NCBI GenBank assembly: GCA_016188825.1
Contig: JACPHA010000011.1
Span: 7,427-71,426, forward strand
Source: Candidatus Pacearchaeota archaeon
GTDB taxonomy: Archaea > Nanobdellota > Nanobdellia > Pacearchaeales > GW2011-AR1
DNA length: 64,000 nt
Direction: 5' to 3'
The translations under genes were made by a program, and so were the position numbers. Shown in pieces: positions 1 to 30,280 of the stretch. Position 1 is the first letter of the stretch. Every line of letters starts with the position of its first letter. The notes beneath the pieces were generated by a model. That model had not been told where the DNA came from. It was given only the letters and a program-made list of their open reading frames with translations, and did not search any database.

Positions 1-1
1 T

Positions 2-223
2 TTTTATCCCAATAAATATGTTGTTGTTGTTTATAAGAAAGGAAACGTTGCTAATATTTCTATGAGGGGGAAAAATGTTAGAGAAATTTTGGATAAAGTC
101 TTGAAAGAAGTTGAGGGAAGCGGCGGGGGACATGAGAATGCTGTTGGAGCGAGAATAAGCACGCAGTATTTAGAAAAGTTTAAGGAGTTGTTGGAGAGGG
201 AAATTAAAGATGAAAAAAATTAG
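2..223 (+). CDS. DHH/DHHA1-family phosphoesterase (RecJ/GAN-like), C-terminal fragment; 5' end lies outside the window
   Basis: Frame open from the window edge to TAG 221-223. The translation ...EGSGGGHENAVGARIS... contains the DHHA1 GGGH motif. Confidence 0.5.
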   Translation, partial: FYPNKYVVVVYKKGNVANISMRGKNVREILDKVLKEVEGSGGGHENAVGARISTQYLEKFKELLEREIKDEKN

Positions 224-545
224 GGGAGTTAAACTTCATGTTTATGGAAGAGTTCAGGGAGTTAATTTTAGGAACAATGTTAAGAGATTTTGCGATGACG
301 GGAACATTAAGGGAAGAGTAATGAACAAGGAAGATGGTAGCGTTTTGATAATTGCACAGGCCAATCGGGAAAAATTGGAGGAATTAGAAAAATGGATTAA
401 AAGCAGTCCAGGATTTTCAAGAATTGATGAAGTAAGGATAGAGGAAAAGGGAATAAATAAGTATTGTGATTTTAGAATTGTGAGAGAGGAGCTCTATTGG
501 AAGGATAAGGAAAAGGCTTTTATTAATTTAATTCGGAAGCTTTAA
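210..545 (+). CDS. acyP: acylphosphatase
   Basis: 111 aa. N-terminal VYGRVQGVNFRN matches the acylphosphatase V-x-G-x-VQGV-x-FR signature, and the size is typical. Confidence 0.85.
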   Translation: MKKIRGVKLHVYGRVQGVNFRNNVKRFCDDGNIKGRVMNKEDGSVLIIAQANREKLEELEKWIKSSPGFSRIDEVRIEEKGINKYCDFRIVREELYWKDKEKAFINLIRKL

Positions 546-569
546 AAAACCTTTTTTTTTAGTTTTCTT

Positions 570-1262
570 ATGGATAGGAAAATACCGATACACGTTGCTA
601 TAATTCCTGACGGAAACAGAAGATGGGCGAAGGAAAAGGGATTTGAAGGAACTAAGGGGCACGAGGTATCGACAGGAAAAGACAGAACCATTGCTTTGTT
701 TGAAGAAGCAAGAAAATTAGGAGTGAAATACGTGTCAATTTGGGGCTTTTCGACTGAGAATTGGAATAGGTCAGATATGGAGAAGAGATTTCTTTTTAAG
801 CTTATTAAAGATTGGATGGAAGGCTTGAGAGATTATGCTCATGATAGTAAAATTCGGTTTAGACATTTGGGAAGAAAAGACAGGCTACCTAAACCGTTGG
901 TCGATGCAATTGTTAAATTTGAGAGAGAAACTGAAAAATACAGCGATTTTAATTTTCAATTGTGTTTGGATTACGGTGGGAGGGACGAAATCGTCAGAGC
1001 TATGCAGAAGATTATTAGAGAGGGGGGAAAAGAACCGGGCGAGGAGGAGTTTTTTAAATATTTAGATACAAAGGAAATTCCAGATCCTGATATGGTTATA
1101 AGAACAGGAGGAGAAAAAAGGCTTTCTGGATTTATGTCATTTCAATCTGCTTACGCAGAGCTTTATTTTACGGAGGTTTATTTTCCTGATTTTGGGCCTG
1201 CAGAATTAAGAAAAGCAGTTGAGGAATTTTCCAGAAGGGCTAGAAGATTTGGGGGAGATTGA
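570..1262 (+). CDS. uppS: cis-prenyltransferase (undecaprenyl diphosphate synthase family)
   Basis: 230 aa. Contains HVAIIPDGNRRWA and the C-terminal RTGGEKRLSGF / ELYF motifs typical of UPP synthases. Confidence 0.9.
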   Translation: MDRKIPIHVAIIPDGNRRWAKEKGFEGTKGHEVSTGKDRTIALFEEARKLGVKYVSIWGFSTENWNRSDMEKRFLFKLIKDWMEGLRDYAHDSKIRFRHLGRKDRLPKPLVDAIVKFERETEKYSDFNFQLCLDYGGRDEIVRAMQKIIREGGKEPGEEEFFKYLDTKEIPDPDMVIRTGGEKRLSGFMSFQSAYAELYFTEVYFPDFGPAELRKAVEEFSRRARRFGGD

Positions 1263-1456
1263 TTGGAGATGTCAAGATTTGCTTAATCTACAAATTTTTA
1301 TTGTTCGAATGAGAAAAAACATAATAAACCGAATTTCCCGTAACAAAATAATCATCGATAGTACTTGTGATGACGACTAATACTAATCAATTGAAACATT
1401 AATGCGGATTTCTGCTAATCACCAACATTTATATATTATCCAAAAGAAATTTTTGT

Positions 1457-2446
1457 ATGGAAAAGGAAAAAATAGCAAGGGAGAATTTATTGAGGAGAAG
1501 CGAAGAAATTGATGGAATTGCAATAAAAGGATACGATTTTGATAACGGTATTGATTATAAAAAAATTTTGCAGAGTTTTTCCAGCACCGGTTTTCAGGCA
1601 TCGCATTTCGGCAGGGCAATTGATATTGTAAACAGGATGATAAATGAAAAGGCATTTATATTTTTGGGATATACTTCTAACATGGTTTCTTCTGGATTGA
1701 GAGATATTTTTAGGTGGCTTGTAAAGCATAAGAAGGTTGATGTGGTTGTCACGACTGCAGGAGGTATTGAAGAGGACATAATAAAATGCTTGGGAGACTT
1801 TTATTTGGGAGATTTTAGAGCAGACGGAAAAGAATTGAGGAAAAAAGGAATAAACAGAATCGGAAATATTTATGCGCCCAACAACAGGTATGTTGAGTTT
1901 GAGAAATTTGTTCAGCCGATTTTGGAAGAGATTTGGAAAGAGCAGAAGAAAACTGGAAAAATATTTAGCGCGGGGGATTTGATATGGAAATTAGGGGAAA
2001 AGATAAATAATGAAAAAAGTATTTGTTATTGGGCTTGGAAAAATAAAATAAGGATTCATTGTCCAGCGATCACCGACGGGGCTTTGGGAGACAATATTTA
2101 TTTTGCGCAGTCTAAGCATGAAGATTTCGTTTTGGATATAGTCAAGGATAGTGTTGAATTTAACAATACGACAATTGGATTAAAAAAATCTGGAGTTATT
2201 ATACTTGGCGCGGGGATTGTGAAGCACACGGTTTTAAATGCAAACATGCTGAGAAATGGTGCAGATTATGCGGTTTATATAAACAATTCGGAAGAATTTG
2301 ACGGTAGCGACGCCGGAGCGCTACCGGAAGAGGCAGTTTCTTGGGGAAAGATATTAGGCAGTGCAGAGACTGTAAAGGTTTTTGGGGACGCGACAATTAT
2401 TTTTCCTTTGTTGGTAGCAGAGAGTTTTTCGTCGATAAAAAAATAG
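1457..2446 (+). CDS. dys: deoxyhypusine synthase
   Basis: 329 aa. Contains VVVTTAGGIEEDIIK and the SDAGALPEEAVSWGK region characteristic of DHS. Confidence 0.9.
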   Translation: MEKEKIARENLLRRSEEIDGIAIKGYDFDNGIDYKKILQSFSSTGFQASHFGRAIDIVNRMINEKAFIFLGYTSNMVSSGLRDIFRWLVKHKKVDVVVTTAGGIEEDIIKCLGDFYLGDFRADGKELRKKGINRIGNIYAPNNRYVEFEKFVQPILEEIWKEQKKTGKIFSAGDLIWKLGEKINNEKSICYWAWKNKIRIHCPAITDGALGDNIYFAQSKHEDFVLDIVKDSVEFNNTTIGLKKSGVIILGAGIVKHTVLNANMLRNGADYAVYINNSEEFDGSDAGALPEEAVSWGKILGSAETVKVFGDATIIFPLLVAESFSSIKK

Positions 2447-2504
2447 CAGGGAAAAAGCTTAAAAAGTAAAATAAATATTATTTATTAAGTCTTAGTTATA
2501 GGAA

Positions 2505-2873
2505 ATGAAAAAAGAAGAACCCGAACCCTGGGGGCAGTTAACTGCTATTGATCTGCATCATTGTGATAAAGAATTATTGCTTAATGAGAATAAGCTCTCA
2601 AAGTTTTCTCTGGCACTTTGCAAAAAAATTGGTATGAAGCCGCATGGCAAGCCGATAGTAGACAGATTTGGGAAGGATAATTTATATGGATATTCCATGA
2701 TGCAATTTATTGAGACTTCGACGATAACTGTTCATTTAGATGACAATGGAAACAGAGCATTTATTGATGTGTTCAGCTGCAAGAAATTCGACGAGAAAAT
2801 AGCTATTGATTTCGCAAAGGAATTTTTCAAGGCAAATAAGGCAAAGCATCAGACGCTGTATAGAGGGTGTTGA
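2505..2873 (+). CDS. speH: S-adenosylmethionine decarboxylase proenzyme-like (SpeH/class 1 pyruvoyl enzyme)
   Basis: 122 aa and colinear with SpeH. CDKELL and FIETSTITVH align with ESH-x-TIHT; FIDVFSC aligns with IDLFTCG. The cleavage site reads E-T-S instead of E-S. Confidence 0.55.
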   Translation: MKKEEPEPWGQLTAIDLHHCDKELLLNENKLSKFSLALCKKIGMKPHGKPIVDRFGKDNLYGYSMMQFIETSTITVHLDDNGNRAFIDVFSCKKFDEKIAIDFAKEFFKANKAKHQTLYRGC

Positions 2874-2936
2874 GTTGACAATTTTGAGGAAGAGGTTTAG
2901 AGGAGTTTTTTTGCCGTTTTTGAGAATATCATTTAT

Positions 2937-2957
2937 ATTCGCCCCCGACAACAATCG
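2937..2957 (+). repeat. ATTCG-poly(C) motif, copy R1
   Basis: ATTCGCCCCCGACAACAATCG, 64 nt downstream of the speH stop. Member of the 7-copy same-strand family. Confidence 0.7.
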
Positions 2958-3121
2958 TGAGGAGAGAAAAGAATAAGAATTTAACTCGGTTTGCGTTGAA
3001 AACGTTTGGGATTGACAAATTTTGAAAACAGTATAATTTAAATATTTGATAAATTTTAGACTGTCTGAAAAAGAATATTGGGTTTCCTAGGGAGAAAATA
3101 GTTAGAATGTTGAAGGAGTAA

Positions 3122-3352
3122 AAAATAAAAAAAGCGGGAATTTTTGGTAGCTATGCTCGTGGAGAACAAAAGAAAGATAGTGATATTGACATACTTATAG
3201 AAGTTCCAAAAAAATTTAGTTTACTTGATTTAATTGCTCTTGAAAGGCAACTGAAAATAGTTTTGAGAAGAAAGGTGGATTTATTAACTTATAGAGACAT
3301 TAGTCCGCTTCTAAAAAAGATTATTTTAGATGAAGAGGTTCGAATAATATGA
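3122..3352 (+). pseudogene. minimal nucleotidyltransferase (MNT-type antitoxin), decayed
   Basis: Translation is KKAGIFGSYARGEQKKDSDIDILIEV... (GS-x9-DxD NTase motif). It is preceded in frame by TAA (3119-3121). The upstream ...REKIVRMLKE looks like its N-terminus. No usable start codon. Confidence 0.55.
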
Positions 3353-3441
3353 TTCAAGAATCTTTAATATTCTTAAAACACGTTTTAGAAGCGATAGAAA
3401 CCGCGGCAAAACGAAACATTTATAAATCTGTGTTACATTAA
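3349..3441 (+). pseudogene. HEPN (DUF86-type) toxin remnant, 30 codons only
   Basis: ATGA overlap with the NTase stop, the typical MNT/DUF86 arrangement. MIQESLIFLKHVLEAIETAAK resembles a DUF86 N-terminus, but the frame stops after 30 aa. Confidence 0.4.
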
Positions 3442-3495
3442 TATAACATATAATTAAATGTATGTTATTTATAGATGACATAAATATGGTATAAA

Positions 3496-4746
3496 ATGAA
3501 TAGAGAGATAGTTCAGAATTATATTAGAAAAGCGAATCCTTGGTGGCATGAGGGGAAAGAGTTTGAAATGGGTGTAAAGTACAAAGAAAGGGAGACATAT
3601 AACGAAATTATGAAGTTTTTTTCAGCAAGGCAAGTAATCGCTCTGACTGGTTTAAGAAGGGTTGGAAAAACCACTATTATGGTTAAAATTATAAAACAAG
3701 CTCTGGAAAAAAAAACAAAAAAGGAAAATATTTTTTATTTTTCTTTCGATGAGTTTTCTGAAATCAGGATAATGGATTTGGCAGAGATATATGAGAATAT
3801 TTTCGGAAAAATACGAAAATCAGATAAGTATTTTATGTTCTTCGATGAAATTCAGAAAGTAAAAAACTGGAGTGAACAACTGAAGGTTGTTTATGACTTG
3901 TATCCAAATATAAAATTTGTAATCTCCGGCTCGGAATCTTTGTTCATTAGAAAAAAATCAAGAGAGAGTTTAGCCGGAAGAATTTATGAGTTCAAAATAA
4001 GTCCGCTTAGTTTTGCAGAATTTTTGGAATTTAAGGACGTGAAAGTCAGGAACATTTTCTTGCAGAAGGAAGAAATAATGAGCGGCTTTAAACAATTTTT
4101 AATGATTAACGGCTTTCCTGAGATAGTCAATTCCAATGCTGAGGAAGCAAAAAGGTATATAAAAGAGGGAATCATAGAAAAAATCCTTTACAGAGACTTG
4201 GTTGAGGTTTTTGATGTTAAAAATCCAGCCCTAATAAAATCAATTTTTAATGTAATATACAACGAACCAGGGCAAATAATAGAAATTCAAGAATTGTCAA
4301 AGGAACTTGGAGTTTCTAGACAAACTTTATCCATATATTTAGAATATTTAGAGGAATCTTTTTTAATAAAAAAACTTTATAATTTTTCGAAAAATGCAAG
4401 AAAAACAGAGAGAAGATTGAAAAGATATTATTCTAGTTTAATTAATCCCTTATTGATAGAGTCCAATTTTTCTAAAGTATTTGAGCAATTTTTAGTGATA
4501 CAATTAGACGCAGAGTTTTTTTGGAGAGATGTATTCAAAAACGAGGTTGATATTGTTAAAACAGATATTTTGACTGCAATTGAAGTTAAATCTGGGGAAA
4601 TAAAAATGAGAGATTTAGAATCTTTAAAAAGATTTATAGAAAAGTTTAAGCCAAAAAAAGCCTGCGTTTTGTCATATGATATTGAGAAGGAAATAGAGAA
4701 AATCAAGATAATTCCTTTTTATAAGTATCTTTTAGGCAAACATTAA
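3496..4746 (+). CDS. COG1373-type AAA+ ATPase (AAA_14 + DUF4143 architecture), paralog 1
   Basis: 416 aa. N-terminal NPWW, Walker A GLRRVGKTT, Walker B FFDEIQ. Paralogous to 12182-13447. Confidence 0.8.
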   Translation: MNREIVQNYIRKANPWWHEGKEFEMGVKYKERETYNEIMKFFSARQVIALTGLRRVGKTTIMVKIIKQALEKKTKKENIFYFSFDEFSEIRIMDLAEIYENIFGKIRKSDKYFMFFDEIQKVKNWSEQLKVVYDLYPNIKFVISGSESLFIRKKSRESLAGRIYEFKISPLSFAEFLEFKDVKVRNIFLQKEEIMSGFKQFLMINGFPEIVNSNAEEAKRYIKEGIIEKILYRDLVEVFDVKNPALIKSIFNVIYNEPGQIIEIQELSKELGVSRQTLSIYLEYLEESFLIKKLYNFSKNARKTERRLKRYYSSLINPLLIESNFSKVFEQFLVIQLDAEFFWRDVFKNEVDIVKTDILTAIEVKSGEIKMRDLESLKRFIEKFKPKKACVLSYDIEKEIEKIKIIPFYKYLLGKH

Positions 4747-4783
4747 GTTCGTTCAGTTATGGAAATGGTTGTTGTGATTGCTA

Positions 4784-4812
4784 ATTTCGCCCCCCTCCCC
4801 GAAATAACAAGA
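4784..4812 (+). repeat. ATTCG-poly(C) motif, copy R2
   Basis: ATTTCGCCCCCCTCCCCGAAATAACAAGA. Flanks are also shared: the upstream side with R5, the downstream side with R4 and R6. Confidence 0.75.
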
Positions 4813-4853
4813 ATAACAGGAAGAAATAAAAAGCAAGAAAACGATAGTAAGGA

Positions 4854-5018
4854 ATGAAAAAAGAGGTTAATTATTTTTTTGTAGTTGTTCTGACAGCGTT
4901 GGTTGTTTTGGTTTTAGTTGGGAGTTATGGTTACTTTATAACTAATTCTAAAGATGAGAGTTTTTTTCTTTCGCCTGTTTTGAAGAGGTTTGTCAGGGGC
5001 GATTTTTTGATGGTTTAG
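4854..5018 (+). CDS. small membrane protein, truncated paralog of 14383-14730
   Basis: 54 aa, MKKEVNYFFVVVLTALVVLVLVGSY... Roughly 90% nt identity by eye over the first ~75 nt to the start of 14383-14730. Confidence 0.4.
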   Translation: MKKEVNYFFVVVLTALVVLVLVGSYGYFITNSKDESFFLSPVLKRFVRGDFLMV

Positions 5019-5052
5019 GAATGTTTTTATAGGATTTTTGTTTTTAGTTAGC

Positions 5053-6408
5053 ATGAATGAAATTCAAGGCATGATTGGTTTGGAGATACATGTTTATTTA
5101 ATTACGAGAGAAAAATTGTTTTGCAGATGCAAGGCAGTGAGGGAAAAGGGTTTGAGGGCAAACAGTTATATCTGCCCGATATGCACAGGAATGCCTGGAG
5201 CAAAACCGATGCTGCCGAATAAGACAGCAGTTGAAAAGGCAGTTCAAGTTGGATTGATGTTAAACTGCAGGATAAATAAGAAATTGGTTTGGCAGAGGAA
5301 ACATTATGACTGGCCTGATTTGCCAAAGGGTTTTCAAAGCACATTGTCTGGAGCAAGGGCATTTCCCGTAGGACTGAATGGAGAATTTTTTGGAATCATA
5401 GTGAGAAGCGTACATTTAGAGGAAGATCCTGCTGCATGGGATCCTGAAACAGGAAGGGTTGATTATAATAGGTCCGGATTTCCTCTAATTGAAATTATTA
5501 CAGAGCCTGATTTTTCAACTTCAGAAGAAGTTATTGATTGGCTGAAGAAGTTATTTCACAATTTAGATTATTTAAGAGCGGTTGCCTCTGATGCTGGCTT
5601 GAAAGCAGATGTTAATGTCAACTTGCCTAAAAAGACAGAGAGAGTCGAGGTTAAGAATGTTAATTCTATTGAAAATATCGGGAAAGCTATTGATTATGAA
5701 TTGGAGAGGCAGTTTAAAGAGGGAAGTGAGAGAGAGACTAGGAGATTTGACGAGGCTAAGGAAAAGACATTTAAGATGAGAGAGAAGGAAGAGGAGCAAG
5801 ATTATAGGTTTATCTCTGATCCTGATTTGCAGCCGATAATTCTTGATGATAACTTTATTTCTGAAATGAAGAAATTAATTCCAGAGTCTCCAGAGAAGAA
5901 GCTTGAGAAGCTGATTAGAAAATATAAAATAGGAAAGGCAGATGCAGAAGTGCTTGCTAAGAATTTGGATATTGTTGAATTTTTTGAAAAGGTTGCTGAA
6001 AAAGTAGAGCCGAAATTTGCTTTGTATTGGGTAACTGTTGAGCTGTTGAGGCATTTGAATTATAATAAGAAAAAATTATCAGGGCTTGACATAAAAGTTG
6101 AGCATTTTGTTGAGCTTTTGAATTTTGTCAAGAGTGGAAAAATCACAGAGCTACAAGGAAAAGAAATTTTGAATAAGTTTTATCCTAAGAGTTTTTCACC
6201 AAGGGGAATTGAAGGAAAGATAAGCAGTTCAAGCGAGCTGGAAAAAGTCTGCAGAGAAATTATGAAAAAGAACAAGGAAGCAGTTGAGAAATATAAGGAA
6301 GGCGATATTAAGGTATTAAACTTTTTGATTGGAGAGGTTATGAAGAAAACGCAGAAGAGGGCTGATTTTAGGGTTGTTAAGGAGATACTTGAGAGATTGA
6401 TGAAGTAA
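5053..6408 (+). CDS. gatB: aspartyl/glutamyl-tRNA amidotransferase subunit B
   Basis: Motifs GLEIHV, RKHYDWPDLPKGFQ, HLEEDPA, VDYNRSGFPLIEIITEPD, DYRF-x-SDPDL and a YqeY-like tail (LIGEVMKKT). ATG 5053 preferred over TTG 5038. Confidence 0.85.
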   Translation: MNEIQGMIGLEIHVYLITREKLFCRCKAVREKGLRANSYICPICTGMPGAKPMLPNKTAVEKAVQVGLMLNCRINKKLVWQRKHYDWPDLPKGFQSTLSGARAFPVGLNGEFFGIIVRSVHLEEDPAAWDPETGRVDYNRSGFPLIEIITEPDFSTSEEVIDWLKKLFHNLDYLRAVASDAGLKADVNVNLPKKTERVEVKNVNSIENIGKAIDYELERQFKEGSERETRRFDEAKEKTFKMREKEEEQDYRFISDPDLQPIILDDNFISEMKKLIPESPEKKLEKLIRKYKIGKADAEVLAKNLDIVEFFEKVAEKVEPKFALYWVTVELLRHLNYNKKKLSGLDIKVEHFVELLNFVKSGKITELQGKEILNKFYPKSFSPRGIEGKISSSSELEKVCREIMKKNKEAVEKYKEGDIKVLNFLIGEVMKKTQKRADFRVVKEILERLMK

Positions 6409-6462
6409 ACATATGTTTTTTGGAGTAACAATGTTTATAAGATACTAAATTTGCTAAATTTT

Positions 6463-7185
6463 ATGGGAAGAAATTTATTGTTGATAAGCAATTCCACTCT
6501 TCATGGCAGCGGTTATTTAGATCATTGTGAATCTGAGATAAAAAGTTTTCTTAATGACAAAGATGTTGAAAGTGTTCTTTTCATTCCTTATGCTAGACCT
6601 AGTGGAAAAACTTATGATGAATATACAGGAATTGCTAAGGAAAGGTTTCAAAGAATGGGTTTTGATTTAGTCGGGATTCAAGAACGCGTTGATTCAGATG
6701 ATGCTGTTAGAAATGCAGAAGCAATATTTATCGGCGGAGGTAATACTTTTGTTCTTCTTGATTCATTATATGGAGTAGATATTATACCTATAATTAAAGC
6801 AAGAGTTAGAAATGGAATGCCATATATTGGAACAAGTGCTGGAGCAAATGTTGCTGGAAGAACGATAATGACTACAAACGATATGCCCATTATTTATCCT
6901 CCTTGTTTTGACGCAATGGGTTTGATTCCATTTAATATAAATCCTCATTATATAGATTCTGATCCTAATTCTAAACATATGGGAGAAACGAGAGAAACGA
7001 GAATAAGAGAGTATCATGTTTTCAATGATAACACTGTTGTTGGATTGAGAGAGGGAGCAATGTTGCATGTTAAAAATAATGAAGCAACTCTTAAGGGTAG
7101 TACTGGCGCAAGAATATTCAGAAAAGGAAAAGAACCAACAGAATACCGGCCAGGAGAATCTTTGGATTTCTTGTTGACAAACTGA
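6463..7185 (+). CDS. pepE: dipeptidase E (peptidase S51)
   Basis: Contains LLLISNS, FIGGGNTFVLL and GTSAGANV (Ser nucleophile context). ATG 6463 lies downstream of TTG 6451. Confidence 0.8.
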   Translation: MGRNLLLISNSTLHGSGYLDHCESEIKSFLNDKDVESVLFIPYARPSGKTYDEYTGIAKERFQRMGFDLVGIQERVDSDDAVRNAEAIFIGGGNTFVLLDSLYGVDIIPIIKARVRNGMPYIGTSAGANVAGRTIMTTNDMPIIYPPCFDAMGLIPFNINPHYIDSDPNSKHMGETRETRIREYHVFNDNTVVGLREGAMLHVKNNEATLKGSTGARIFRKGKEPTEYRPGESLDFLLTN

Positions 7186-7227
7186 CTTGAGCAAAAAATT
7201 ATTAAATATATACTTTTTAGAAGTTTT

Positions 7228-7932
7228 ATGAGAGAATTTAGAAACAAAGCAGATGCGAGAGAAGGCAGGGAACCAGATGCGGATTTTGAGTTGTTTTACA
7301 AACTGTCAAGTTTGTATAATGCAATGACTTTTTCAGTGGTTGCACCCGTTGTTGTTGAATCCGGATTGGCTATTAAAAAAAAGGTTTCAAGAAATTCTTC
7401 TTTTGGTTATATTTTTTATGATTGCTTAGATGACGAAGAGAGAGGTTTGGAGATAGTAAGAGGAAGAAAAATTGCCGAAAGAGATGTTCAAGAACATTTC
7501 ATATTATGTGAAAAAATTAATGGGGTTTTTTATGAGATTAAGGACAGGGCTAACGAAAATAATAGAGAGGAAGTTACGGATTTAAGTAGAAAATTAGGAG
7601 AGGAGGTTATGAAATATGCTAAATTAGTTTTAAATCATGGAGAAACACTCGGAGACGAAAAAGCATTTTTGTTATATCCTGTTTGTGTCGTAGGACATTA
7701 TTTTTTTGTGAAGGGTTATAATGTCAAGCGAGAGAAAAAATTTAACGAGGAAGGAAGTTTTCAAGGCTTACAAGAAGAAGTTAGAGATATTTTCTCTGTT
7801 TTAGACAGTTTTGTTTCAGGCAAAGGTGAAGTAGCGAGAGTTGAGATAAATGATTCTGATTTGGAAGACAGAAATTCTTCTCTTGAACAATTATTAGATA
7901 TAAACAGAGGACTATGGGAAAGAATTAAATGA
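7228..7932 (+). CDS. hypothetical protein
   Basis: 234-aa ORF with no competing ORF on either strand. No motif recognised. Confidence 0.5.
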   Translation: MREFRNKADAREGREPDADFELFYKLSSLYNAMTFSVVAPVVVESGLAIKKKVSRNSSFGYIFYDCLDDEERGLEIVRGRKIAERDVQEHFILCEKINGVFYEIKDRANENNREEVTDLSRKLGEEVMKYAKLVLNHGETLGDEKAFLLYPVCVVGHYFFVKGYNVKREKKFNEEGSFQGLQEEVRDIFSVLDSFVSGKGEVARVEINDSDLEDRNSSLEQLLDINRGLWERIK

Positions 7933-7989
7933 TTTTACTTGAGTTGTTGAATTAGCAAAGTTTATAATTTTGTTTTTTGATATAGACTA

Positions 7990-8835
7990 ATGGTAACTCT
8001 TCCCGTTATTGGCTCTTTTTTAGAAGCTGCCGGAATGATTATTGAGAAAAAAATTTTGGGAAAGAGGAATATTAATTTTAAAAATTATACGGTTTATGAA
8101 TTTTTGGCAATCTTGGTTGTGATGCTCCCCATTATTTATTTTTTTTGGAGGATTGATAAGGAGGCTTTTATTTTTGGAAAACTTGCAGTTTTTATTTTGG
8201 TTGTTATTTTTTCTGTAATGGCAAATTTATTGATTTTTTATTCTTTGAAGAGAGAACATATCACAGAATTTGAGCCTGTTTGGTTGATGCAGCCATTTTT
8301 TACAATAATTCTTGCATTTATTTTTTATGAGAGCGAGAGAAATTTTTTTGGATTAGGACTTGCTTTGACGGCGAGCATTACGCTTGTTGCGAGCCATGTG
8401 AAGAAGCATCATTTTACTTTTGATAGATATATTCTCGCAGCTTTTTTAGGAAGTTTTTGTTTTTCTGTCGAGCTTGTCCTTTCGAGACTAATTCTTGATT
8501 ATTATTCTCCGTTCAGCTTGTATTTTTTACGGAGTTCATTTATTTTTTTAATAACATTTATAATTTTCAGACCGAGCTTTAAGCCTGTAATCAGAGAAAA
8601 GAAAATTGGTGCGATGATTTTATTTGTCGGTTTGATTTGGGTTTTTTACAGAGTAATTATTTATTATGGTTATCTTGCTTTTGGGATTATTTTTACAACA
8701 ACCATTTTTATACTTTCACCGGTTTTTATTTTTTTATTTGCAACTTTTTACCTGAAAGAGAAACCAACTTTAAGGTACATAATTTCAACTTTGATAATGG
8801 TAATCTGCGTTGTTCTGGCTATTTTGCTTAGATGA
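7990..8835 (+). CDS. EamA/DMT-superfamily membrane transporter
   Basis: 281 aa with about 10 hydrophobic segments in two similar halves, typical of EamA-domain permeases. Confidence 0.6.
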   Translation: MVTLPVIGSFLEAAGMIIEKKILGKRNINFKNYTVYEFLAILVVMLPIIYFFWRIDKEAFIFGKLAVFILVVIFSVMANLLIFYSLKREHITEFEPVWLMQPFFTIILAFIFYESERNFFGLGLALTASITLVASHVKKHHFTFDRYILAAFLGSFCFSVELVLSRLILDYYSPFSLYFLRSSFIFLITFIIFRPSFKPVIREKKIGAMILFVGLIWVFYRVIIYYGYLAFGIIFTTTIFILSPVFIFLFATFYLKEKPTLRYIISTLIMVICVVLAILLR

Positions 8836-8879
8836 CGTGGGAAAAGATTTATTAGCTTATTTTAGTCATTTCTTTTGTC

Positions 8880-8950
8880 AGGCTCGTAAGTTAATGGATA
8901 GACTTCCCGGCTTCGGACCGGGCAATGGGGGTTCGATTCCCCCCGAGCCT
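8880..8950 (+). tRNA. tRNA-Arg (anticodon TCG)
   Basis: Acceptor AGGCTCG/CGAGCCT, anticodon stem CCCGG/CCGGG with loop CTTCGGA, T-arm GGGGG-TTCGATT-CCCCC. No encoded CCA. Confidence 0.85.
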
Positions 8951-8996
8951 ATTTTTTAAGAGATAGATTTAATAAAGTTATTTATTTTATAGAGAA

Positions 8997-10457
8997 ATGA
9001 AAAATAAGGAAAATAAGGGCAGAGATGGGAAGGGAATAACTGCTGAAAAAGACGATTTTTCAAAATGGTTTGCCGAATTAATAATAAAAGCAGAGCTTGC
9101 GGATTATACTGCTGTTTCCGGAACGATTGTTTTTAGGCCAGCCTCTTATGCAATATGGGAGAAAATTAAGGAAGAGATTGACAAGAGATTTAAAAAATTA
9201 GGAATAAAGAATTGTTATTTTCCTTTACTGATTCCTGAAAAGAGTTTTATGAGAGAACAGGAGCATGTTAAGGGATTTAAGCCAGAGGTTGCGTGGGTTA
9301 CGTACGCAGGAGATTCAAAATTAAGCGAGAGGTTTGCCGTGAGGCCTACCTCAGAGGCAATAATGTATGAGTCTTATGCAAAATGGATAAGAAGCTGGAG
9401 GGATTTGCCTTTGAAATTGAATCAGTGGAATAATGTTTTAAGGTGGGAGTTTAAACATCCCGTGCCTTTTTTGAGAACGCGAGAATTTTTATGGAACGAA
9501 GGGCATACTGTTTATGCAACTAAAGAGGATGCGGAAAAGGAAGGGGGGGAGATAATTGGAGTTTATAGTGAAATTTGCAGAGATTATCTTGCTTTGCCCT
9601 CTTTGATTGGGAAAAAATCAGACAAGGAAAAATTCGCAGGAGCAGAGCATACGATATCAATGGAATTTTATATGCCAAATGGGAAATGTGTTCAGGGACC
9701 AGATTTTCATCATGACGGGCAGAATTTTGCTAAGGCGTATGGGATAAAATTTTTGGATAGAGATGGAAAAGAAAAATTTGCCTATCAGAATACTTTTGCG
9801 ATTTCTACAAGAATGCTTGGAGTTATGTTTGCAATTCATTCGGATTCTAGAGGTTTGATTTTGCCACCGCGAGCTGCTCCAAATAAGATTGTGATTGTGC
9901 CTATTTTATTTGATGATTCAAAGGAAAAAGTAGCGGGAAAAGCAAGGGAGATTGAAAAAACATTGAAAGAATTTAGTCCTATTTTAGATATGAGGGAAGA
10001 ATACAAGCCGGGGTTTAAGTTTAATGAGTGGGAAATGAAGGGAATTCCGTTGAGAATTGAAATTGGACCAAAGGAGCTGGATAAGGAGAGTGTTGTGATT
10101 GTTAGAAGGGATAATGGAAAAAAGGAGAATGTAAAGATAAGAAAATTAAAAGAAGAGGTTGATAGAGTTTTGGAAGAGATACAGAAGAATTTATTTGCAA
10201 GAGCTGAAAAATTGCTTAAAGATAATATTGTTAAAGTCAGAAATGTTAATGAATTGAAAAAAGCGGTTGAAAATAAGAAAATTGCTTTTGTGCCTTTGTG
10301 CGATAAAAGAGGCTGTGAAGATAATTTGAAGTTTGAGACAATTGGAGCAAAGGTTCTGAATATTCCTGATGAACAGCCTTGGGGGACTGGGAAAAACAGC
10401 TGTGTGATATGTGGGGAAGAAGCAGAGTATTTTGCGTATGTTGGGAAAAGCTACTAA
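8997..10457 (+). CDS. proS: prolyl-tRNA synthetase, archaeal/eukaryotic type
   Basis: 486 aa with class II motifs (FRPTSE-like AVRPTSE, RTREFLWNEGH). The Cys-containing C-terminal domain ends in Tyr, as in archaeal-type ProRS. Confidence 0.9.
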   Translation: MKNKENKGRDGKGITAEKDDFSKWFAELIIKAELADYTAVSGTIVFRPASYAIWEKIKEEIDKRFKKLGIKNCYFPLLIPEKSFMREQEHVKGFKPEVAWVTYAGDSKLSERFAVRPTSEAIMYESYAKWIRSWRDLPLKLNQWNNVLRWEFKHPVPFLRTREFLWNEGHTVYATKEDAEKEGGEIIGVYSEICRDYLALPSLIGKKSDKEKFAGAEHTISMEFYMPNGKCVQGPDFHHDGQNFAKAYGIKFLDRDGKEKFAYQNTFAISTRMLGVMFAIHSDSRGLILPPRAAPNKIVIVPILFDDSKEKVAGKAREIEKTLKEFSPILDMREEYKPGFKFNEWEMKGIPLRIEIGPKELDKESVVIVRRDNGKKENVKIRKLKEEVDRVLEEIQKNLFARAEKLLKDNIVKVRNVNELKKAVENKKIAFVPLCDKRGCEDNLKFETIGAKVLNIPDEQPWGTGKNSCVICGEEAEYFAYVGKSY

Positions 10458-10610
10458 CTTTTTCAGAGTCCTCGAAAATAAAATTTCTTCGAATATTTGG
10501 GAGAGTTATTAGTGAAGACGTCGAATGACCTATATTTTTTAAGAAATTTAATTACCTATAACAAGACGCCATTTTATTATATTACATATTTTTGATGAAT
10601 TATCAACGAT

Positions 10611-10712
10611 ATTATTAATTATAGTCTAGGACATTAATAATTTTCTGTTTTGTCATAGACTATCAAGGGAAAGTCATAAAATTTTGTTCAATTATTTATG
10701 ACTTTCACTATA
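10611..10712 (-). repeat. palindromic MITE-like repeat, family B copy B4 (inverted relative to the others)
   Basis: ATAGTCTAGGACA-18 nt-GTCATAGACTAT hairpin plus flank. The reverse complement aligns with 39621-39720. Confidence 0.7.
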
Positions 10713-10892
10713 CCTAATTTTATTATTATCGCGCCCTTTTTATTAATAAAAAAGAAAGGCATATTTTTAGGGTTTTTCAAAACTCTCTAGAATTTAAAAT
10801 TTTAAATTCTTAGATTATAATATTCCTTATCATTGCCTATAAATATAGAACACAATAGTAAGATTTTTAAATAGGTGAAAAATCCTTTTCAG

Positions 10893-11282
10893 ATGAGAAA
10901 ATTATTTAGTAGGGGTTTGAGAAAGGGTATTTTGACATTAGGAGTGGTTGCTTCTTCTATAGGTTATGGTTGCTGGAGAAATAATGATGGTAGGGAAGAT
11001 GTTGATAATGGAATTGAGATAGATAATCGTGAGGATTGCGAATCTGCGAATGGAGTTTGGAAAAGATGGGGGTTACTGCCTGTTGAAAGTTGCAATATAA
11101 GGGCAAATGATTTTGGAGAAAGATGTTATAACTCTTCAGAATGCGAGGGTTTGTGTTTGCTTGAGAGATGTCTTGATGATGAGTGCAGAGAAAGTATTGG
11201 AGCATGCTCAGAATTTAGAAGAGTTTATGGGTGTTTTGCAACAAGAGAAGAAGATGGGATTTATCATGTTTGTGTTGATTGA
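10893..11282 (+). CDS. Cys-rich secreted or membrane-anchored small protein
   Basis: N-terminal hydrophobic segment (GILTLGVVASSIGYGC) followed by 10 Cys in ~90 aa. ATG 10893 lies downstream of GTG 10875. Confidence 0.5.
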   Translation: MRKLFSRGLRKGILTLGVVASSIGYGCWRNNDGREDVDNGIEIDNREDCESANGVWKRWGLLPVESCNIRANDFGERCYNSSECEGLCLLERCLDDECRESIGACSEFRRVYGCFATREEDGIYHVCVD

Positions 11283-11292
11283 TTTTTTCTAA

Positions 11293-11313
11293 ATTCGTCC
11301 CCTAGATAACAAC
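11293..11313 (+). repeat. ATTCG-poly(C) motif, copy R3 (one C to T change)
   Basis: ATTCGTCCCCTAGATAACAAC, 11 nt after the stop of 10893-11282. A vestigial ATGAAAAAGATGG start follows at 11358. Confidence 0.6.
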
Positions 11314-11462
11314 TGGATGCATAGAAATTTATAAAAATCAAGAAATCCATGTTAAAAAATGAAAAAGATGGTTTCTAAGGTTAGAATTATTTACGGAAAT
11401 GTTTTGATTGTCTTAATGTTTGTTTTTCTTGGAGTGATTTTTGAGTTTGCGTTTGAGTGAAC

Positions 11463-11756
11463 TTATTTTAATTTCTGCCTTAAATTATGAAGTCTCTTTA
11501 AATATTCTTTGTAGGCTTTGTCGTGCGGACCAATTGTGAGAAGCCAAATTGTATTGCTTTCAACATAGTAGACCAGTCTTATACTTCTAGTTATTTCTTC
11601 TCTATAACAATTTTCTCCTCCGCTTAGATGTTTTAATCTCAAAGGATTTTGTTTTATCTTTTCTTTTTTCTTATAGAATATTTCGATATGCTTTTTGTCT
11701 AGTTTATCTAAATCTCGCAAGAAGTCAGGATGAAGTTTTATTATCCATTCTATCAA
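11463..11756 (-). CDS. RelE/ParE-family toxin
   Basis: 97 aa. The DFLRDLDKLDKK...IKQNP...RLVYYVESNTIWLLTIGPHDKAY pattern is typical of RelE/ParE. It overlaps the upstream antitoxin gene. Confidence 0.75.
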   Translation of the reverse strand: MIEWIIKLHPDFLRDLDKLDKKHIEIFYKKKEKIKQNPLRLKHLSGGENCYREEITRSIRLVYYVESNTIWLLTIGPHDKAYKEYLKRLHNLRQKLK

Positions 11757-11952
11757 TTTTTATACCTCTTATTCTAAGATAATTATCAAGCTCTTCTTCC
11801 GACGTACTAATTGAAGGATTTGTTTTAATATCGACTAGTCTTTTTTTAGCAATCTCATCTTGGTTTAAAAGTGAGGCCACGTCTTCTATAAGTACTTCTA
11901 CATCAAACAATACTTTGTTCAATTTATCTGCCGGGATTGTTATCAATGCCAT
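11725..11952 (-). CDS. antitoxin partner of the RelE/ParE toxin
   Basis: 75-aa ORF immediately upstream of the toxin and overlapping it. Confidence 0.55.
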   Translation of the reverse strand: MALITIPADKLNKVLFDVEVLIEDVASLLNQDEIAKKRLVDIKTNPSISTSEEELDNYLRIRGIKIDRMDNKTSS

Positions 11953-12010
11953 AATTTTTTAGAACAAAACAAGTTTAAATAGTTAATGTTTACTGATTTT
12001 ATTTTTCTGA

Positions 12011-12035
12011 ATTCGCCCCCCCGGTAACATCAAGA
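12011..12035 (+). repeat. ATTCG-poly(C) motif, copy R4
   Basis: ATTCGCCCCCCCGGTAACATCAAGA. The downstream ~55 nt is shared with R2 and R6 and ends in ATGAAAAAGAGGG. Confidence 0.75.
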
Positions 12036-12181
12036 AAACAGAAGAAACAAAAAGCGAGAAAACGATGTTATGGAATGAAAAAGAGGGTTTTGGAAACGGA
12101 TAAAATTCGTTCTGGGTCCTATAAAAACTTGACCTCTATAATAACCAAAAAGTTTAAAAACTTGACCTTTCTAGTCATCAA

Positions 12182-13447
12182 ATGGAAATAGAAGATTTTA
12201 ATCCATGGTGGAAAATAGGAACAATAAGCGAGGAATACAAGAAGCTTAAAAAAAGAAAACTTTTTTATGAAGTAAAAAAATATGTTAAAGACAAACAAAT
12301 AATTGTCGTTACGGGATTAAGAAGAACAGGAAAAACAGTATTGCTTTATCATTTAATAGAGGATTTAATTGAAAAAGAAGTTAAACCTCAAAACGTTACT
12401 TATTTTAATTTTGATCTTTCGATAAAGACTCTTGAAGAAATCTTCGAGAATTACAAAAAAATTAACGATATTGATTACAAAAAAGAAAAGATTTACGTTT
12501 TCTTTGATGAAATACAAAAATTAGATGACTGGCAGAATAAAATAAAGATTTTTTATGACAATTATCAAAATATTAAATTCTTTGTTTCGGGCTCTAGCGG
12601 CCTTTTCATAGAGAAAAAAACAAAAGAAAGTCTTGCAGGAAGAAGTTTTAGTTTCAGGCTTTTTCCATTAAAATTTTTAGAATATTTGGAGTTGAGGGGA
12701 AAGGAGGATATTTCTTATAAACCTCTTTTATTCAAAGAAGAAATAAAAAAAGAAATTGAGCATTATATCAAAAGCGGCGGATTTCCGGAGCTTATTGCAG
12801 AAAAAGACGATGTAAAGATAAAGAGATATGTTAAAGAATTAATAATAGACAAAATTGTTTATATAGATATCCCCAAAGTTTTTGAAATAGATGAGCCGGA
12901 GCTTTTGCAAAGACTTATTTCAATTATATCCTCTTCGCCAGGTTTAACTATCGACTATGATGGCCTTGCTAGTGACTTGGGCAGAAATAGAAAAACAATT
13001 TCTAATTATTTATCTTATCTTGAAAACTCTTTTATTATAAAGAAACTATATAACTTTAGTAAAAATTTACTAACAAGCGAGAAAAAGAAAAAAAGATTTT
13101 ATCCTTCAACAACCGCTCTTTCTTTTTTATTTAATGCAGAAAGAGGCAGGATAATTGAGAACGTTATTTTGCAAAATTCTGAAATTGATTATTTTTATAG
13201 GAAAGGAGATAAAGAAATAGATTTCATTTATAATAAAGACAAGAAAACTTTTTTATTAGAGTCAAAATTCAGAAAGGAATTCAACAAAGAAATAAAACAA
13301 AGCATGCTCTATTTTATGAAAAAATTCAAGACAGATAGTGGTATTATAATAACAGAAGATTATGAGGCAGAAGAAAAAGCAGAATGGTTTGGAAAAAAGG
13401 CAAAAATTAAGTTTGTTCCGTTATGGAAATGGCTGTTGCAATTTTAA
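12182..13447 (+). CDS. COG1373-type AAA+ ATPase (AAA_14 + DUF4143 architecture), paralog 2
   Basis: 421 aa. NPWW, Walker A GLRRTGKTV, Walker B FFDEIQ, C-terminal KFVPLWKWLLQF. Confidence 0.8.
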   Translation: MEIEDFNPWWKIGTISEEYKKLKKRKLFYEVKKYVKDKQIIVVTGLRRTGKTVLLYHLIEDLIEKEVKPQNVTYFNFDLSIKTLEEIFENYKKINDIDYKKEKIYVFFDEIQKLDDWQNKIKIFYDNYQNIKFFVSGSSGLFIEKKTKESLAGRSFSFRLFPLKFLEYLELRGKEDISYKPLLFKEEIKKEIEHYIKSGGFPELIAEKDDVKIKRYVKELIIDKIVYIDIPKVFEIDEPELLQRLISIISSSPGLTIDYDGLASDLGRNRKTISNYLSYLENSFIIKKLYNFSKNLLTSEKKKKRFYPSTTALSFLFNAERGRIIENVILQNSEIDYFYRKGDKEIDFIYNKDKKTFLLESKFRKEFNKEIKQSMLYFMKKFKTDSGIIITEDYEAEEKAEWFGKKAKIKFVPLWKWLLQF

Positions 13448-13475
13448 ATTCGCCCCCACCCTCGAAATAACAAGG
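13448..13475 (+). repeat. ATTCG-poly(C) motif, copy R5
   Basis: ATTCGCCCCCACCCTCGAAATAACAAGG, starting directly after the ATPase stop codon. Confidence 0.75.
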
Positions 13476-13618
13476 CACATAAAAGAATATAAAAACCTCT
13501 GAGAACTTAAATTGTCAAGAGCGACGTAAAGTTAAAGTTGTGTGAACCATATGCAGACTTAGTTACTAAGAGTGAAAGGATAAGAAAGTTTTTTATATAT
13601 TAATTTGTTTATGCAGTT

Positions 13619-13993
13619 ATGAAAGATGAAGCAGGCAAATGGCTAAAACAGGCAAAAGCAGACTTAAGGACAGCCAGAAATAGTCTTAAAAGCAAAGACT
13701 TTTATGCCTCTGTTTTCTGGTCTCAGCAGGCTGTTGAAAAAAGTTTGAAGGCAGTAATTATAGAAAAAATCGGAGAACTTATTAAAATTCATGATTTAGT
13801 CATTTTAGGAAGGAAATCTGCTATTCCTGATAAGCTCTCAATTGATTGCGAGAGACTTTCCAAAATTTATATAGACTCGCGATATGGGGTTATAGACAAT
13901 GAAATTCCTGCTGAGAAATTTGGCAAAAAAGAAGCAGATGAATTTTTGAAAATAGCAAGGAGTATTTTAAAATGGTGCGAAAAAGAGATTTAG
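13619..13993 (+). CDS. HEPN-domain protein
   Basis: 124 aa. WLKQAKADLRTARNSL...FWSQQAVEKSLKA...IHDL... matches the classical HEPN fold pattern. Overlaps the following NTase gene. Confidence 0.75.
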   Translation: MKDEAGKWLKQAKADLRTARNSLKSKDFYASVFWSQQAVEKSLKAVIIEKIGELIKIHDLVILGRKSAIPDKLSIDCERLSKIYIDSRYGVIDNEIPAEKFGKKEADEFLKIARSILKWCEKEI

Positions 13994-14289
13994 AAATTGT
14001 AAGAGAGTTCAAGGAAAAGTTATCAAGAAAAATACCTGTAAAAAAAGTTATTTTATTTGGCAGCCGTGTCAAAGGAGAGATTCATAAATGGAGCGATTTT
14101 GATATTGTCGTTGTCAGCGATAAATTCAGGGGAGAGAAATCCTATCAAAGAGGAATTGGGTTTTACAGCTATTGGAAAGAAGATTATCCTGTTGATTTCT
14201 TATGCTACACGCCGGAAGAGTTTGAGAGATTAAGGAAAAAGATAACCATAGTTAGAGAAGCGGTTAAAGAGGGAATTGTTATTGAATAA
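13972..14289 (+). CDS. nucleotidyltransferase (MNT-type) partner of the HEPN protein
   Basis: 105 aa. LFGSRVKGEIHKWSDFDIVVV carries the GS-x9-11-DxD pol-beta NTase motif. Confidence 0.8.
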   Translation: MVRKRDLEIVREFKEKLSRKIPVKKVILFGSRVKGEIHKWSDFDIVVVSDKFRGEKSYQRGIGFYSYWKEDYPVDFLCYTPEEFERLRKKITIVREAVKEGIVIE

Positions 14290-14312
14290 TAAAGCAGGCG
14301 GTTTTTTCCTAC

Positions 14313-14340
14313 ATTCGCCCCCCCCCCCGATAATGACAAG
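14313..14340 (+). repeat. ATTCG-poly(C) motif, copy R6 (C11 tract)
   Basis: ATTCG + 11 C (14318-14328) + GATAATGACAAG. Confidence 0.75.
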
Positions 14341-14382
14341 AAGAAGAGAAAGAGATATAAAGCTTTTTGACGGTTTAATGGA

Positions 14383-14730
14383 ATGAAAGAAGAGGTTAAT
14401 TATTTTTTTGTGGTTGTTCTGATAGCTTTAGTTGTTTTGGTTTTGCTAGGGAGTTATTTGACAGGGCAGGGGATTTTTGATTTTTTAAGAGAAGGAAGAC
14501 TTTCACCGTTAAGAACAGAATTAGCTTCTCAAGAATTGGATGAAATAAAACAAGCTAAAGAAAAAATAGCAGAAAGTAGTGAACACGATTTCTCTACAAT
14601 GTACAATCTTCTTGGAAAAAATAAGAATAAAAAAGATAAAATATTAAAAATATGCGGCGAGTTTGATCCTATTTATTGCTTAAAAAAGGCTTCACAGCAA
14701 AATCCTGATTTAAGAGGCGAAATTTGTTAA
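14383..14730 (+). CDS. membrane-anchored hypothetical protein (full-length version of 4854-5018)
   Basis: 115 aa. N-terminal TM segment MKEEVNYFFVVVLIALVVLVLLGSY followed by a charged soluble part. Confidence 0.55.
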   Translation: MKEEVNYFFVVVLIALVVLVLLGSYLTGQGIFDFLREGRLSPLRTELASQELDEIKQAKEKIAESSEHDFSTMYNLLGKNKNKKDKILKICGEFDPIYCLKKASQQNPDLRGEIC

Positions 14731-14881
14731 TTATGGGTTAGCTAAAAAAGTAGTTAATGGCGGGTTATAATTAATTAGCATCTATAGACGATAAAATAAC
14801 TGGATTTGTAATTCCATCACCCGCAGGCTTAACAGAACCTTATTCAACAATCTTTTTATATTAGGTTTTTCTTGAGTGTAA

Positions 14882-16213: not shown

Positions 16214-16291
16214 GGAAAGGGAGAAAGGATGTAGTAACTTCATGATGGTCACAATAGAAAGTTTTAAATATGGATATTTATTTAAAAAAGG

Positions 16292-19840: not shown

Positions 19841-19964
19841 TCAAGGAACTTGACAGAAGTTCCTTGAACATGTCAAGAATTTCCAATTCTTGAGCACACC
19901 CAAGAATTTAATTGTCGGAATTCTTGGTGTCCAAAAGTCCAAACACACACAAGGACTTTTTGAT
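19841..19964 (+). repeat. multi-hairpin intergenic repeat, family A copy A1
   Basis: Four hairpins: CAAGGAACTT/AAGTTCCTTG, CAAGAATT/AATTCTTG, CCAAGAATT/GAATTCTTGG, AAAAGTCC/GGACTTTT. Ends in TTTTTGAT. Confidence 0.8.
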
Positions 19965-24251: not shown

Positions 24252-24284
24252 GACTTATTTAATAAAGCCTTAGTGAATTTTTGT

Positions 24285-24347
24285 TATGTCAAGAATTTCC
24301 AATTCTTGAGCGTGCAAAAGTCCAAATACACACAAGGACTTTTTGAT
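24285..24347 (+). repeat. multi-hairpin intergenic repeat, family A copy A2 (short form)
   Basis: TATGTCAAGAATTTCCAATTCTTGAGC...AAAAGTCCAAATACACACAAGGACTTTTTGAT. Lacks the middle hairpin. Confidence 0.8.
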
Positions 24348-24378
24348 TAATAGTCTTTAGAAAAAAATTAGAAAAAAA

Positions 24379-30279: not shown

Positions 30280-30280
30280 T

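Follow-up and report, generated by a model that had tools for sequence, protein, structure and literature searches.

The question raised by this locus is why a gene for a COG1373 ATPase that ends with a complete C-terminus of its own is followed directly by the last codons of what looks like a second ATPase gene. The locus lies in a 64-kb stretch of DNA (hereafter the window) from a Candidatus Pacearchaeota archaeon, which is part of contig C19 of an archaeal metagenome-assembled genome (MAG; 1.0 Mb, 20 contigs, 34% G+C); the names of homologous proteins agree with a position in Pacearchaeota/DPANN. The window carries two intact genes of this family: paralog 1 (open reading frame, ORF, 3496-4746; 416 amino acids, aa) and paralog 2 (12182-13447; 421 aa). 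A first-pass annotation of the window had proposed that the sequence behind the stop codon of paralog 1 is the vestigial 3' end of a further ATPase gene, to which an incoming ATPase module had become joined. As detailed below, the 31-43 nucleotides (nt) behind that stop codon are what is left of another COG1373 ATPase gene, of a subtype ending in PLWKWLL, and no longer form a working part of a gene; that ATPase gene was probably replaced by an incoming paralog 1 unit through illegitimate recombination.

Both paralogs code for proteins with the COG1373 architecture: an N-terminal P-loop domain (AAA_14; E values 6e-36 for paralog 1 and 4e-34 for paralog 2) and a C-terminal DUF4143 domain (8e-16 and 3e-17), all Pfam scores being above gathering. 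The two proteins are 38% identical in a full-length alignment, at the end of which ...KIKIIPFYKYLL of paralog 1 pairs with ...KIKFVPLWKWLL of paralog 2. Since the C-terminus of paralog 1 thus aligns with that of paralog 2, the extra tail duplicates a position of the protein that is already present, and the earlier statement that paralog 1 has its own equivalent in front of the tail was borne out: its C-terminus is complete.

The nucleotides behind the paralog 1 TAA are GTTCGTTCAGTTATGGAAATGGTTGTTGTGA. Read in the frame that opens within this TAA, 4745-4777 is AAG TTC GTT CAG TTA TGG AAA TGG TTG TTG TGA (KFVQLWKWLL-stop), exactly as described in the first-pass annotation, and with 4735-4746 included it reads (A-N-I-)KFVQLWKWLL-stop; the end of paralog 2 (13409-13447) is AAG TTT GTT CCG TTA TGG AAA TGG CTG TTG CAA TTT TAA. 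Ungapped comparison of 4734-4774 with 13398-13438 gave 37 identical nt in 41 and a local score of 33. The background for this score was taken from 2,130 further stretches of 120 nt in the same 64 kb (mean 7.3, standard deviation 1.8, maximum 14) and from 2,000 shuffles (maximum also 14), and the orphan tail stands about 14 standard deviations above the former. A fortuitous similarity in AT-rich DNA, or a chimeric assembly at a repeat, would be conceivable in a 20-contig MAG of 34% G+C with many short repeats. Chance was ruled out by these controls, since neither the background nor the shuffles ever exceeded 14, and a chimera by the finding that the joint sequence is 100% identical in three contigs from three independent single-run Logan assemblies of different sequencing runs, retrieved by exact-protein look-ups; moreover, the boundary between paralog 1 and the tail is not an exact repeat common to any other locus. 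Taken together, we give these two explanations practically no credence.

Over the ten codons from K to LL, the orphan tail shares 27/30 nt with the paralog 2 tail, 18-24/30 with other tails of the PLWKWLL subtype and 16/30 with the tail of paralog 1 itself. This last value ruled out that the tail is a slipped duplicate of the end of paralog 1. At the peptide level, 12 of 14 positions equal those of paralog 2; the two changes are Lys to Asn and Pro to Gln (CCG to CAG), the latter removing the invariant Pro of the family. The frame of the tail has six open codons upstream, preceded by TAG and lacking an ATG, GTG or TTG start. We conclude that the orphan tail is a remnant, not an intact translatable gene, and is itself without function.

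A six-frame scan of the genome returned PLWKWLL tails only at this orphan and at the ends of four intact COG1373 genes, namely paralog 2, C14:4126 and C14:181 (both on the minus strand) and C18:106090 (plus strand). These four genes end in K(I/V)KF(I/V)PLWKWLL plus 1-2 residues, and their stop codons lie 0-3 nt from a poly-C motif, TTCGCCCCC, which follows both tails of the window (at 4786 and 13449), as had been noted before. The same peptide forms the C-terminus of about 20 full-length ATPase genes in sister species, where the motif is absent, and the vestige corresponds to the family pattern K-F-[IV]-P-L-W-K-W-L-L with 0-4 residues before the stop. Where a motif copy follows a non-ATPase module, it is not preceded by a tail. 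A looser pattern of TTCGCCCCC was found in 0 of 20 sister species, and searches of genome and metagenome collections with the exact motif gave, besides three contigs of JGI metagenomes, only chance matches (in Burkholderia and in a MAG of the Desulfobacteraceae). Since tails occur without the motif in sister species and motif copies occur without the tail, the tail is a property of the ATPase family, next to which the motif stands as a feature specific to this species. The tail is thus derived from an ATPase and is not part of an unrelated non-coding element.

The right joint of paralog 1 was located by comparison with its closest homologues, P0002 (73% identical) and P0003 (71%), both of 416 aa and ending in ...IPFYKYLLGKN. 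The final codons of paralog 1 are GGC AAA CAT TAA (G K H stop), and the P0002 and P0003 genes end with GGCAAAAACTAA (G K N stop); since the closest homologues end in this way, the GKH end is native to the clade of paralog 1. This ruled out that GKH-stop is itself remnant sequence read out of frame, a candidate raised by the match of AGGCAAACATTAAG to AGGCAAAAATTAAG of paralog 2. The ends of the two subtypes resemble each other by chance in different frames: GGCAAAAACTAA matches AGGCAAAAATTAAG at 12 of 13 nt, and both the PLWKWLL-type codons K-A-K-I-K (aaGGCAAAAATTAAg) and the G-K-N-stop of the paralog 1 clade carry GGCAAAAA(C/T)TAAG. The resulting 12-nt microhomology can be written GGCAAA(A/C)A(T/C)TAA. 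On this comparison the crossover is placed somewhere in 4735-4746, which is common to both parents, and the unambiguous foreign part begins at 4747. The first-pass annotation had set the joint directly behind the paralog 1 stop and begun the foreign tail at 4745. Of this description, two elements stand: the 3' end of an ATPase gene contains a non-homologous joint, and a real vestige follows it. The joint itself now falls within the microhomology at the last four codons, not strictly behind the stop. Since the paralog 2 version read in the frame of paralog 1 also gives G K N stop, the fusion is seamless for the paralog 1 protein. We interpret this joint as the signature of microhomology-guided illegitimate recombination.

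The left joint was found upstream of paralog 1. Between about 3411 and its start codon, paralog 1 is preceded by sequence that can be aligned to that in front of P0002 and P0003 (73%/71%) and of the homologue in G018, the closest sister species; leftward, the similarity ends at about 3411-3414. At this point the clade-conserved region of about 85 nt abruptly meets a truncated HepT/DUF86 gene. The HepT-like frame holds the first 30 codons, of which about 21 are native, and intact HepT proteins of the genome and of relatives have 111-125 aa. Its N-terminus follows the pattern xLxFIEHILESIxAI of intact HepT proteins from the window genome and relatives, and its start overlaps the stop of the preceding MNT gene in the usual ATGA fashion. 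The MNT and HepT genes overlap like an MNT/HepT (DUF86) toxin-antitoxin pair, and both are broken. From these comparisons, 3411-4746 reads as one complete 1.34-kb gene unit of the paralog 1 clade, flanked on the left by a HepT gene that has lost its 3' part and on the right by an ATPase gene that has lost its 5' part. No significant direct repeat was found at the two joints of this unit (score 9 against a random mean of 7.7), which ruled out a flanking target duplication.

The clade-specific upstream region, with TTTATAAAT and two GTTA(N6-8)TAAC palindromes, was observed at 3414-3495 of the window, at L105:5915-6000, at L109:5398-5483 and in L014 upstream of 1495, and it is kept across genomes whose proteins are only 56-73% identical. 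It resembles a promoter with an operator, perhaps serving autoregulation through the helix-turn-helix of the protein.

The genomic position of the homologues indicated that paralog 1 stands at an unusual site. The P0002 and P0003 genes have a Yip1-family gene on one side and EF-1beta on the other, with genes for prepilin peptidase and HIT upstream, and the corresponding peptidase-HIT...EF-1beta locus of the window genome (on C14) contains two unrelated small genes and no ATPase. The order uppS-dhs-(speH)-gatB is syntenic across the genus, and the stretch in front of gatB measures between 49 nt and 4.5 kb (0 to 4.5 kb by another count of the speH/dhs-gatB interval), being 246 nt in the closest species. 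None of eight species examined had an ATPase in this interval, and the accessory genes found there, judged by eye from translations, vary by species (a PemK-like toxin, an AbiE-like pair, large secreted proteins). Given the homologues at the Yip1-EF-1beta locus and the variability of the gatB interval, paralog 1 appears ectopic, in a hotspot. An argument for horizontal transfer from identity levels is weak, because the prepilin peptidase of the P0002 genome is 61% identical and those of genus representatives are 54-58% identical; the P0002 genome being about as close as genus representatives, we relied on synteny and not on identity. The notion of an incoming module was strengthened by these data: paralog 1 brings about 85 nt of the upstream region of its clade, and its homologues occupy another locus, which is empty of an ATPase here.

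From both joints we infer a single replacement event. According to this reading, a PLWKWLL ATPase would once have stood immediately upstream of the poly-C motif and of the small membrane-protein gene before gatB, as four paralogs do elsewhere in the genome. An incoming unit (3411-4746), comprising paralog 1 together with some 85 nt of the promoter/operator region of its clade, would then have been swapped in one microhomology-guided illegitimate event for everything from the 3' part of HepT to the body of the resident ATPase. On the left, the unit would have come to abut the first 21 or so HepT codons, and on the right it would have been fused about 14 codons before the end of the resident ATPase. 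There, the chance 12-nt match, read as G-K-N-stop in one frame and as K-A-K-I-K in the other, would have let paralog 1 keep its exact native C-terminus and stop. The remnant may survive because the event was recent or because it neighbours the conserved motif/promoter block. The proposal that the recombination joint lies inside the ATPase 3' end, with an incoming module joined to a resident tail and its motif, was in this way supported and sharpened.

Several points weigh against this replacement. The left joint was placed by loss of similarity and shows no recognisable microhomology, and the HepT stub, too short for a profile, gave no Pfam match. Tails of the PLWKWLL family share 21-27/30 nt with one another, whatever the gene or species; the close match to paralog 2 is therefore a poor guide to age or donor, and paralog 2 need not have been the donor. 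The arrangement before the event, with an intact resident ATPase at the site, was found in no genome, the parents being deduced from paralogs and from homologues 71-73% identical, and exact copies of paralog 1, of the S-adenosylmethionine decarboxylase (AdoMetDC)-like protein and of GatB led only to the same arrangement when strain variants were sought. Finally, the locus would look no different if paralog 1 had been resident before and two separate deletions had trimmed its neighbours.

This last possibility supposes that paralog 1 already stood in a tandem array (MNT-HepT, paralog 1, a PLWKWLL ATPase and the motif) whose decaying neighbours were trimmed by two independent deletions, the right one at the 12-nt microhomology. 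Tandem ATPase modules do exist, three of them in a row on C14, and ATPase decay is common in the genus: the closest sister species has a COG1373 pseudogene with six in-frame stops (G018:C6:5571-6536), and three further orphan PLWKWLL tails, of 24-51 codons and two of them with an ATG, stand by housekeeping genes in sister species. One is beside a class-V aminotransferase gene (G018:C4, L078), one beside a GDP-mannose dehydratase gene (G009:C8, L089), and the third (G004:C4, L092), in an arrangement resembling that of the window, between a DUF234 gene and a subtilase gene (N-terminal hydrophobic stretch). In addition, the MNT partner was independently broken by a stop codon. However, each of the two deletions would have had to end exactly at an edge of the conserved paralog 1 unit and both intervening motif copies would have been lost; and because the paralog 1 homologues of relatives are at a different conserved locus, an arrival would be needed anyway. 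We regard such erosion as unlikely, if worth keeping in mind. Since one replacement explains both joints, it is preferred over two deletions.

It was also considered that no such ATPase ever stood at this site, and that a block running from the ATPase tail through motif and promoter to the start of the membrane-protein gene was duplicated or converted from elsewhere, for example from the region of paralog 2 and tm115. The motif/promoter/membrane-gene-start blocks are indeed 71-89% identical between loci and the adjoining ATPases only about 30% identical in protein, so the blocks are younger than the genes or have been homogenised; 4790-4928 is 79% identical to 14319-14457, and removal of the HEPN/NTase insert between 13449 and 14314 would recreate the order tail, motif, membrane-protein gene. 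But this copying leaves the truncated HepT gene unexplained and demands that the copied tract begin by chance in the 12-nt microhomology, and the substitutions in the tail (Pro to Gln, altered spacer) suggest decay in place. Its probability is accordingly rated as low.

An origin by site-specific recombination was weighed as well. The tail and motif would in that case be a recombinase site, either integron-like (attC) or an att site at the ATPase 3' end, and the second tail a displaced half-site. Same-strand copies of the motif bracket modules of one or two genes (a RelE pair, HEPN/NTase pairs, ATPases) on C19, C14 and C18, and the 1-Mb genome has five tyrosine-recombinase genes with PF00589 matches (C18:99584-100060, C13:461-937, C1:822-1301, C4:44055-44543 and C19:130413-130871), two of them at contig ends. 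Integrons, with their cassette arrays and attC sites, are reported from Archaea, DPANN lineages among them (10.1101/2022.02.06.479319; PMC9668308). The array examined here resembles those in that a same-strand repeat separates small accessory modules, such as toxin-antitoxin pairs and defence-type genes, lined up one after another, but differs from them in having no adjacent integrase, no apparent attC-like imperfect palindrome and a joint that lies outside the repeat. None of the five PF00589 genes adjoins a motif array on C19, C14 or C18, the nearest being about 4.8 kb from the C18 array with ribosomal-protein and dehydrogenase genes in between. Some motif copies can form a stem of 4-6 bp from ATTTCG and CGAAAT, but single-strand folds of six copies had no common structure and thus gave no sign of a conserved hairpin or attC-like structure around the motif. 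Furthermore, the joint is about 40-50 nt upstream of the motif and in different sequence, non-ATPase modules lack the tail before their motif, no cargo lies between the two tails, which are only 53% identical, and the motif was not found in the 20 sister species or the scanned public collections. As far as can be seen, this is not a site-specific system, and we hold a recombinase site to be very improbable.

The same arrays allow a broader idea, namely that the succession of PLWKWLL tail, poly-C motif, promoter and membrane-gene start acts as a species-specific recombination anchor at which defence-type modules are exchanged. We consider this doubtful. If true, it would amount to a cassette system that is recombinase-independent or not yet recognised, and the orphan tail would be the footprint of an exchange 40 nt off the anchor.

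Comparison with known systems places the locus closest to gene turnover of familiar kinds. Homology-facilitated illegitimate recombination has been described for naturally transformable bacteria. As in microhomology-guided gene replacement, a foreign unit is here joined at a short chance match (12 nt), the resident genes at the border are truncated and the incoming ORF is intact; unlike there, neither flank shows a long homologous anchor, and the process is deduced from one end-state. To our knowledge, the host, an uncultivated DPANN archaeon, has no known pathway of DNA uptake. The locus also recalls the remnants that deletional decay leaves in the reduced genomes of symbionts and of DPANN and candidate phyla radiation (CPR) lineages, in that a short non-coding stub lies beside a functional neighbour and three more ATPase tails occur in sister species. 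It differs from them because the stub is seamlessly fused to a member of the same family and this neighbour has a foreign flank on its other side, which points to replacement and not to loss alone. Elements that integrate into the 3' ends of tRNA or protein genes and bring a replacement tail with them likewise leave two tandem 3' ends of which the downstream one is non-functional, but in the present case the two tails differ in subtype (16/30 nt), directly adjoin each other and come with no integrase. Near-identical direct repeats of attL/attR type flanking integrase cargo were not found here: the tails are adjacent and match at 16/30 nt, and the repeat score at the joints is the 9 against 7.7 given above.

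The coordinates of the features of the locus are collected in Table 1.

Table 1. Features at and around the paralog 1 locus, in window coordinates.
Feature	Position	Strand	Basis or remark
MNT-type nucleotidyltransferase pseudogene (antitoxin half of MNT/HepT pair)	3053..3352	+	In-frame TAA at 3119-3121; frame translation; part after the stop matches Pfam NTP_transf_2 (E 7e-16)
5' stub of HepT/DUF86 toxin gene (MIQESLIFLKHVLEAIETAAK...)	3349..3410	+	About 21 native codons, then foreign sequence; frame stops at 3441
Native upstream region of the paralog 1 clade	3411..3495	+	TATA-like TTTATAAAT and two GTTA..TAAC palindromes; left joint at about 3409-3414
ATPase paralog 1, 416 aa, intact, PFYKYLL-GK[NH]-stop subtype	3496..4746	+	Pfam AAA_14 (6e-36), DUF4143 (8e-16); PADLOC PDC-S01 (7e-65)
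Right joint, 12-nt microhomology GGCAAACATTAA	4735..4746	+	3' ends of P0002/P0003 genes compared with paralog 2 13399-13411
Unambiguous vestige of PLWKWLL-type ATPase gene, (K)FVQLWKWLL + TGA	4747..4777	+	Sequence comparison, frame scan
ATTTCG-poly(C)-CGAAATAACAAGAA motif	4784..4813	+	Directly behind the intact tails of four other ATPases in the genome
TATA-like box (4823-4834) and small membrane-protein gene tm54 (4854-5018)	4823..5018	+	Block 4790-4928 79% identical to 14319-14457
ATPase paralog 2, 421 aa, reference tail 13398-13447, motif 13448-13475 directly behind	12182..13475	+	Pfam AAA_14, DUF4143

The tm54 gene stands in front of gatB, and the neighbours of the two paralogs are RelE/ParE pairs and HEPN/NTase pairs. 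The region of paralogs 1 and 2 is defence-island-like, a setting in which fast gene exchange is expected. The only match to a known RNA family in positions 1-17000 was a tRNA at 8880-8951. Both paralogs also match, end to end, the candidate defence family PDC-S01 of PADLOC, whose profile PDLC04787 is covered from 4 to 408 of 412 positions (6.7e-65 for paralog 1 and 1.9e-66 for paralog 2), and a defence role is predicted on this basis; DUF4143 has been listed among PD-(D/E)XK nucleases (PMC3424549). The full-length profile match and the toxin-antitoxin surroundings agree with PDC-S01 candidate single-gene anti-phage systems; the genes described here differ from these in being repeatedly paired with a small membrane-protein gene, and defence activity in archaea is putative.

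This pairing was observed at several loci: C14:1-5500 (minus strand), C18:104800-109100, 12012-14730 of the window, L021 (G011) and L032 (G004). The genes, coding for small single-pass membrane proteins (MKKRGLS..., MKKEVNYFF..., MKRRVIVLI...), lie behind or before ATPases of the COG1373 family, and ATPase and membrane-protein gene possibly form a two-gene module. The repeating unit in the window genome appears to be motif, promoter, membrane-protein gene and ATPase, the next motif abutting the ATPase stop. The stretch from the motif to the membrane-gene start is duplicated, with one copy (4790-4928) before gatB and the other (14319-14457) before gatD, which code for two amidotransferase subunits, and taking out the HEPN/NTase module between the motif copies at 13449 and 14314 would make the gatD locus just like the gatB locus.

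Two observations concern the interval before gatB in other species. In the closest sister species (L060, G018:C38, about 2120-2360), the speH-gatB spacer is filled by a repeat (GTCAAGAATTnnnAATTCTTGAGCnCACCCAAGAATT...) resembling a miniature inverted-repeat transposable element (MITE), copies of which occur in the window at 19868-19964, 24284-24358, 28193-28300 and 30280-30307. A SpeH-like AdoMet decarboxylase gene follows the deoxyhypusine synthase gene in the window genome, in G018 and in G011; in its place, G004, G012, G009 and G001 (L056, L057, L059 and L061) have an ORF of 162-175 aa between dhs and gatB. By eye this ORF resembles a pyruvoyl-type arginine decarboxylase (MKIFVT.G.G.G.T.KSAFDAAL...NYN...LSSV), and alternative polyamine genes may occupy one slot between dhs and gatB.

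The orphan tail is a neat but commonplace scar left by gene turnover, not a new kind of element. What is new beyond its first description is the native GKH end of paralog 1 with the 12-nt joint, the left joint at about 3411 and the different locus of this type of ATPase in relatives. The locus offers a base-pair-resolution view of the exchange of defence-type accessory genes in an uncultivable ultra-small archaeon, in which a complete gene with its own promoter would have taken the place of the larger part of a toxin gene and of a paralogous ATPase gene, with the incoming protein kept exactly. The remnant, the variable dhs-gatB interval and the orphan tails of sister species together identify these COG1373 ATPases as fast-turnover genes and this interval as an insertion hotspot.

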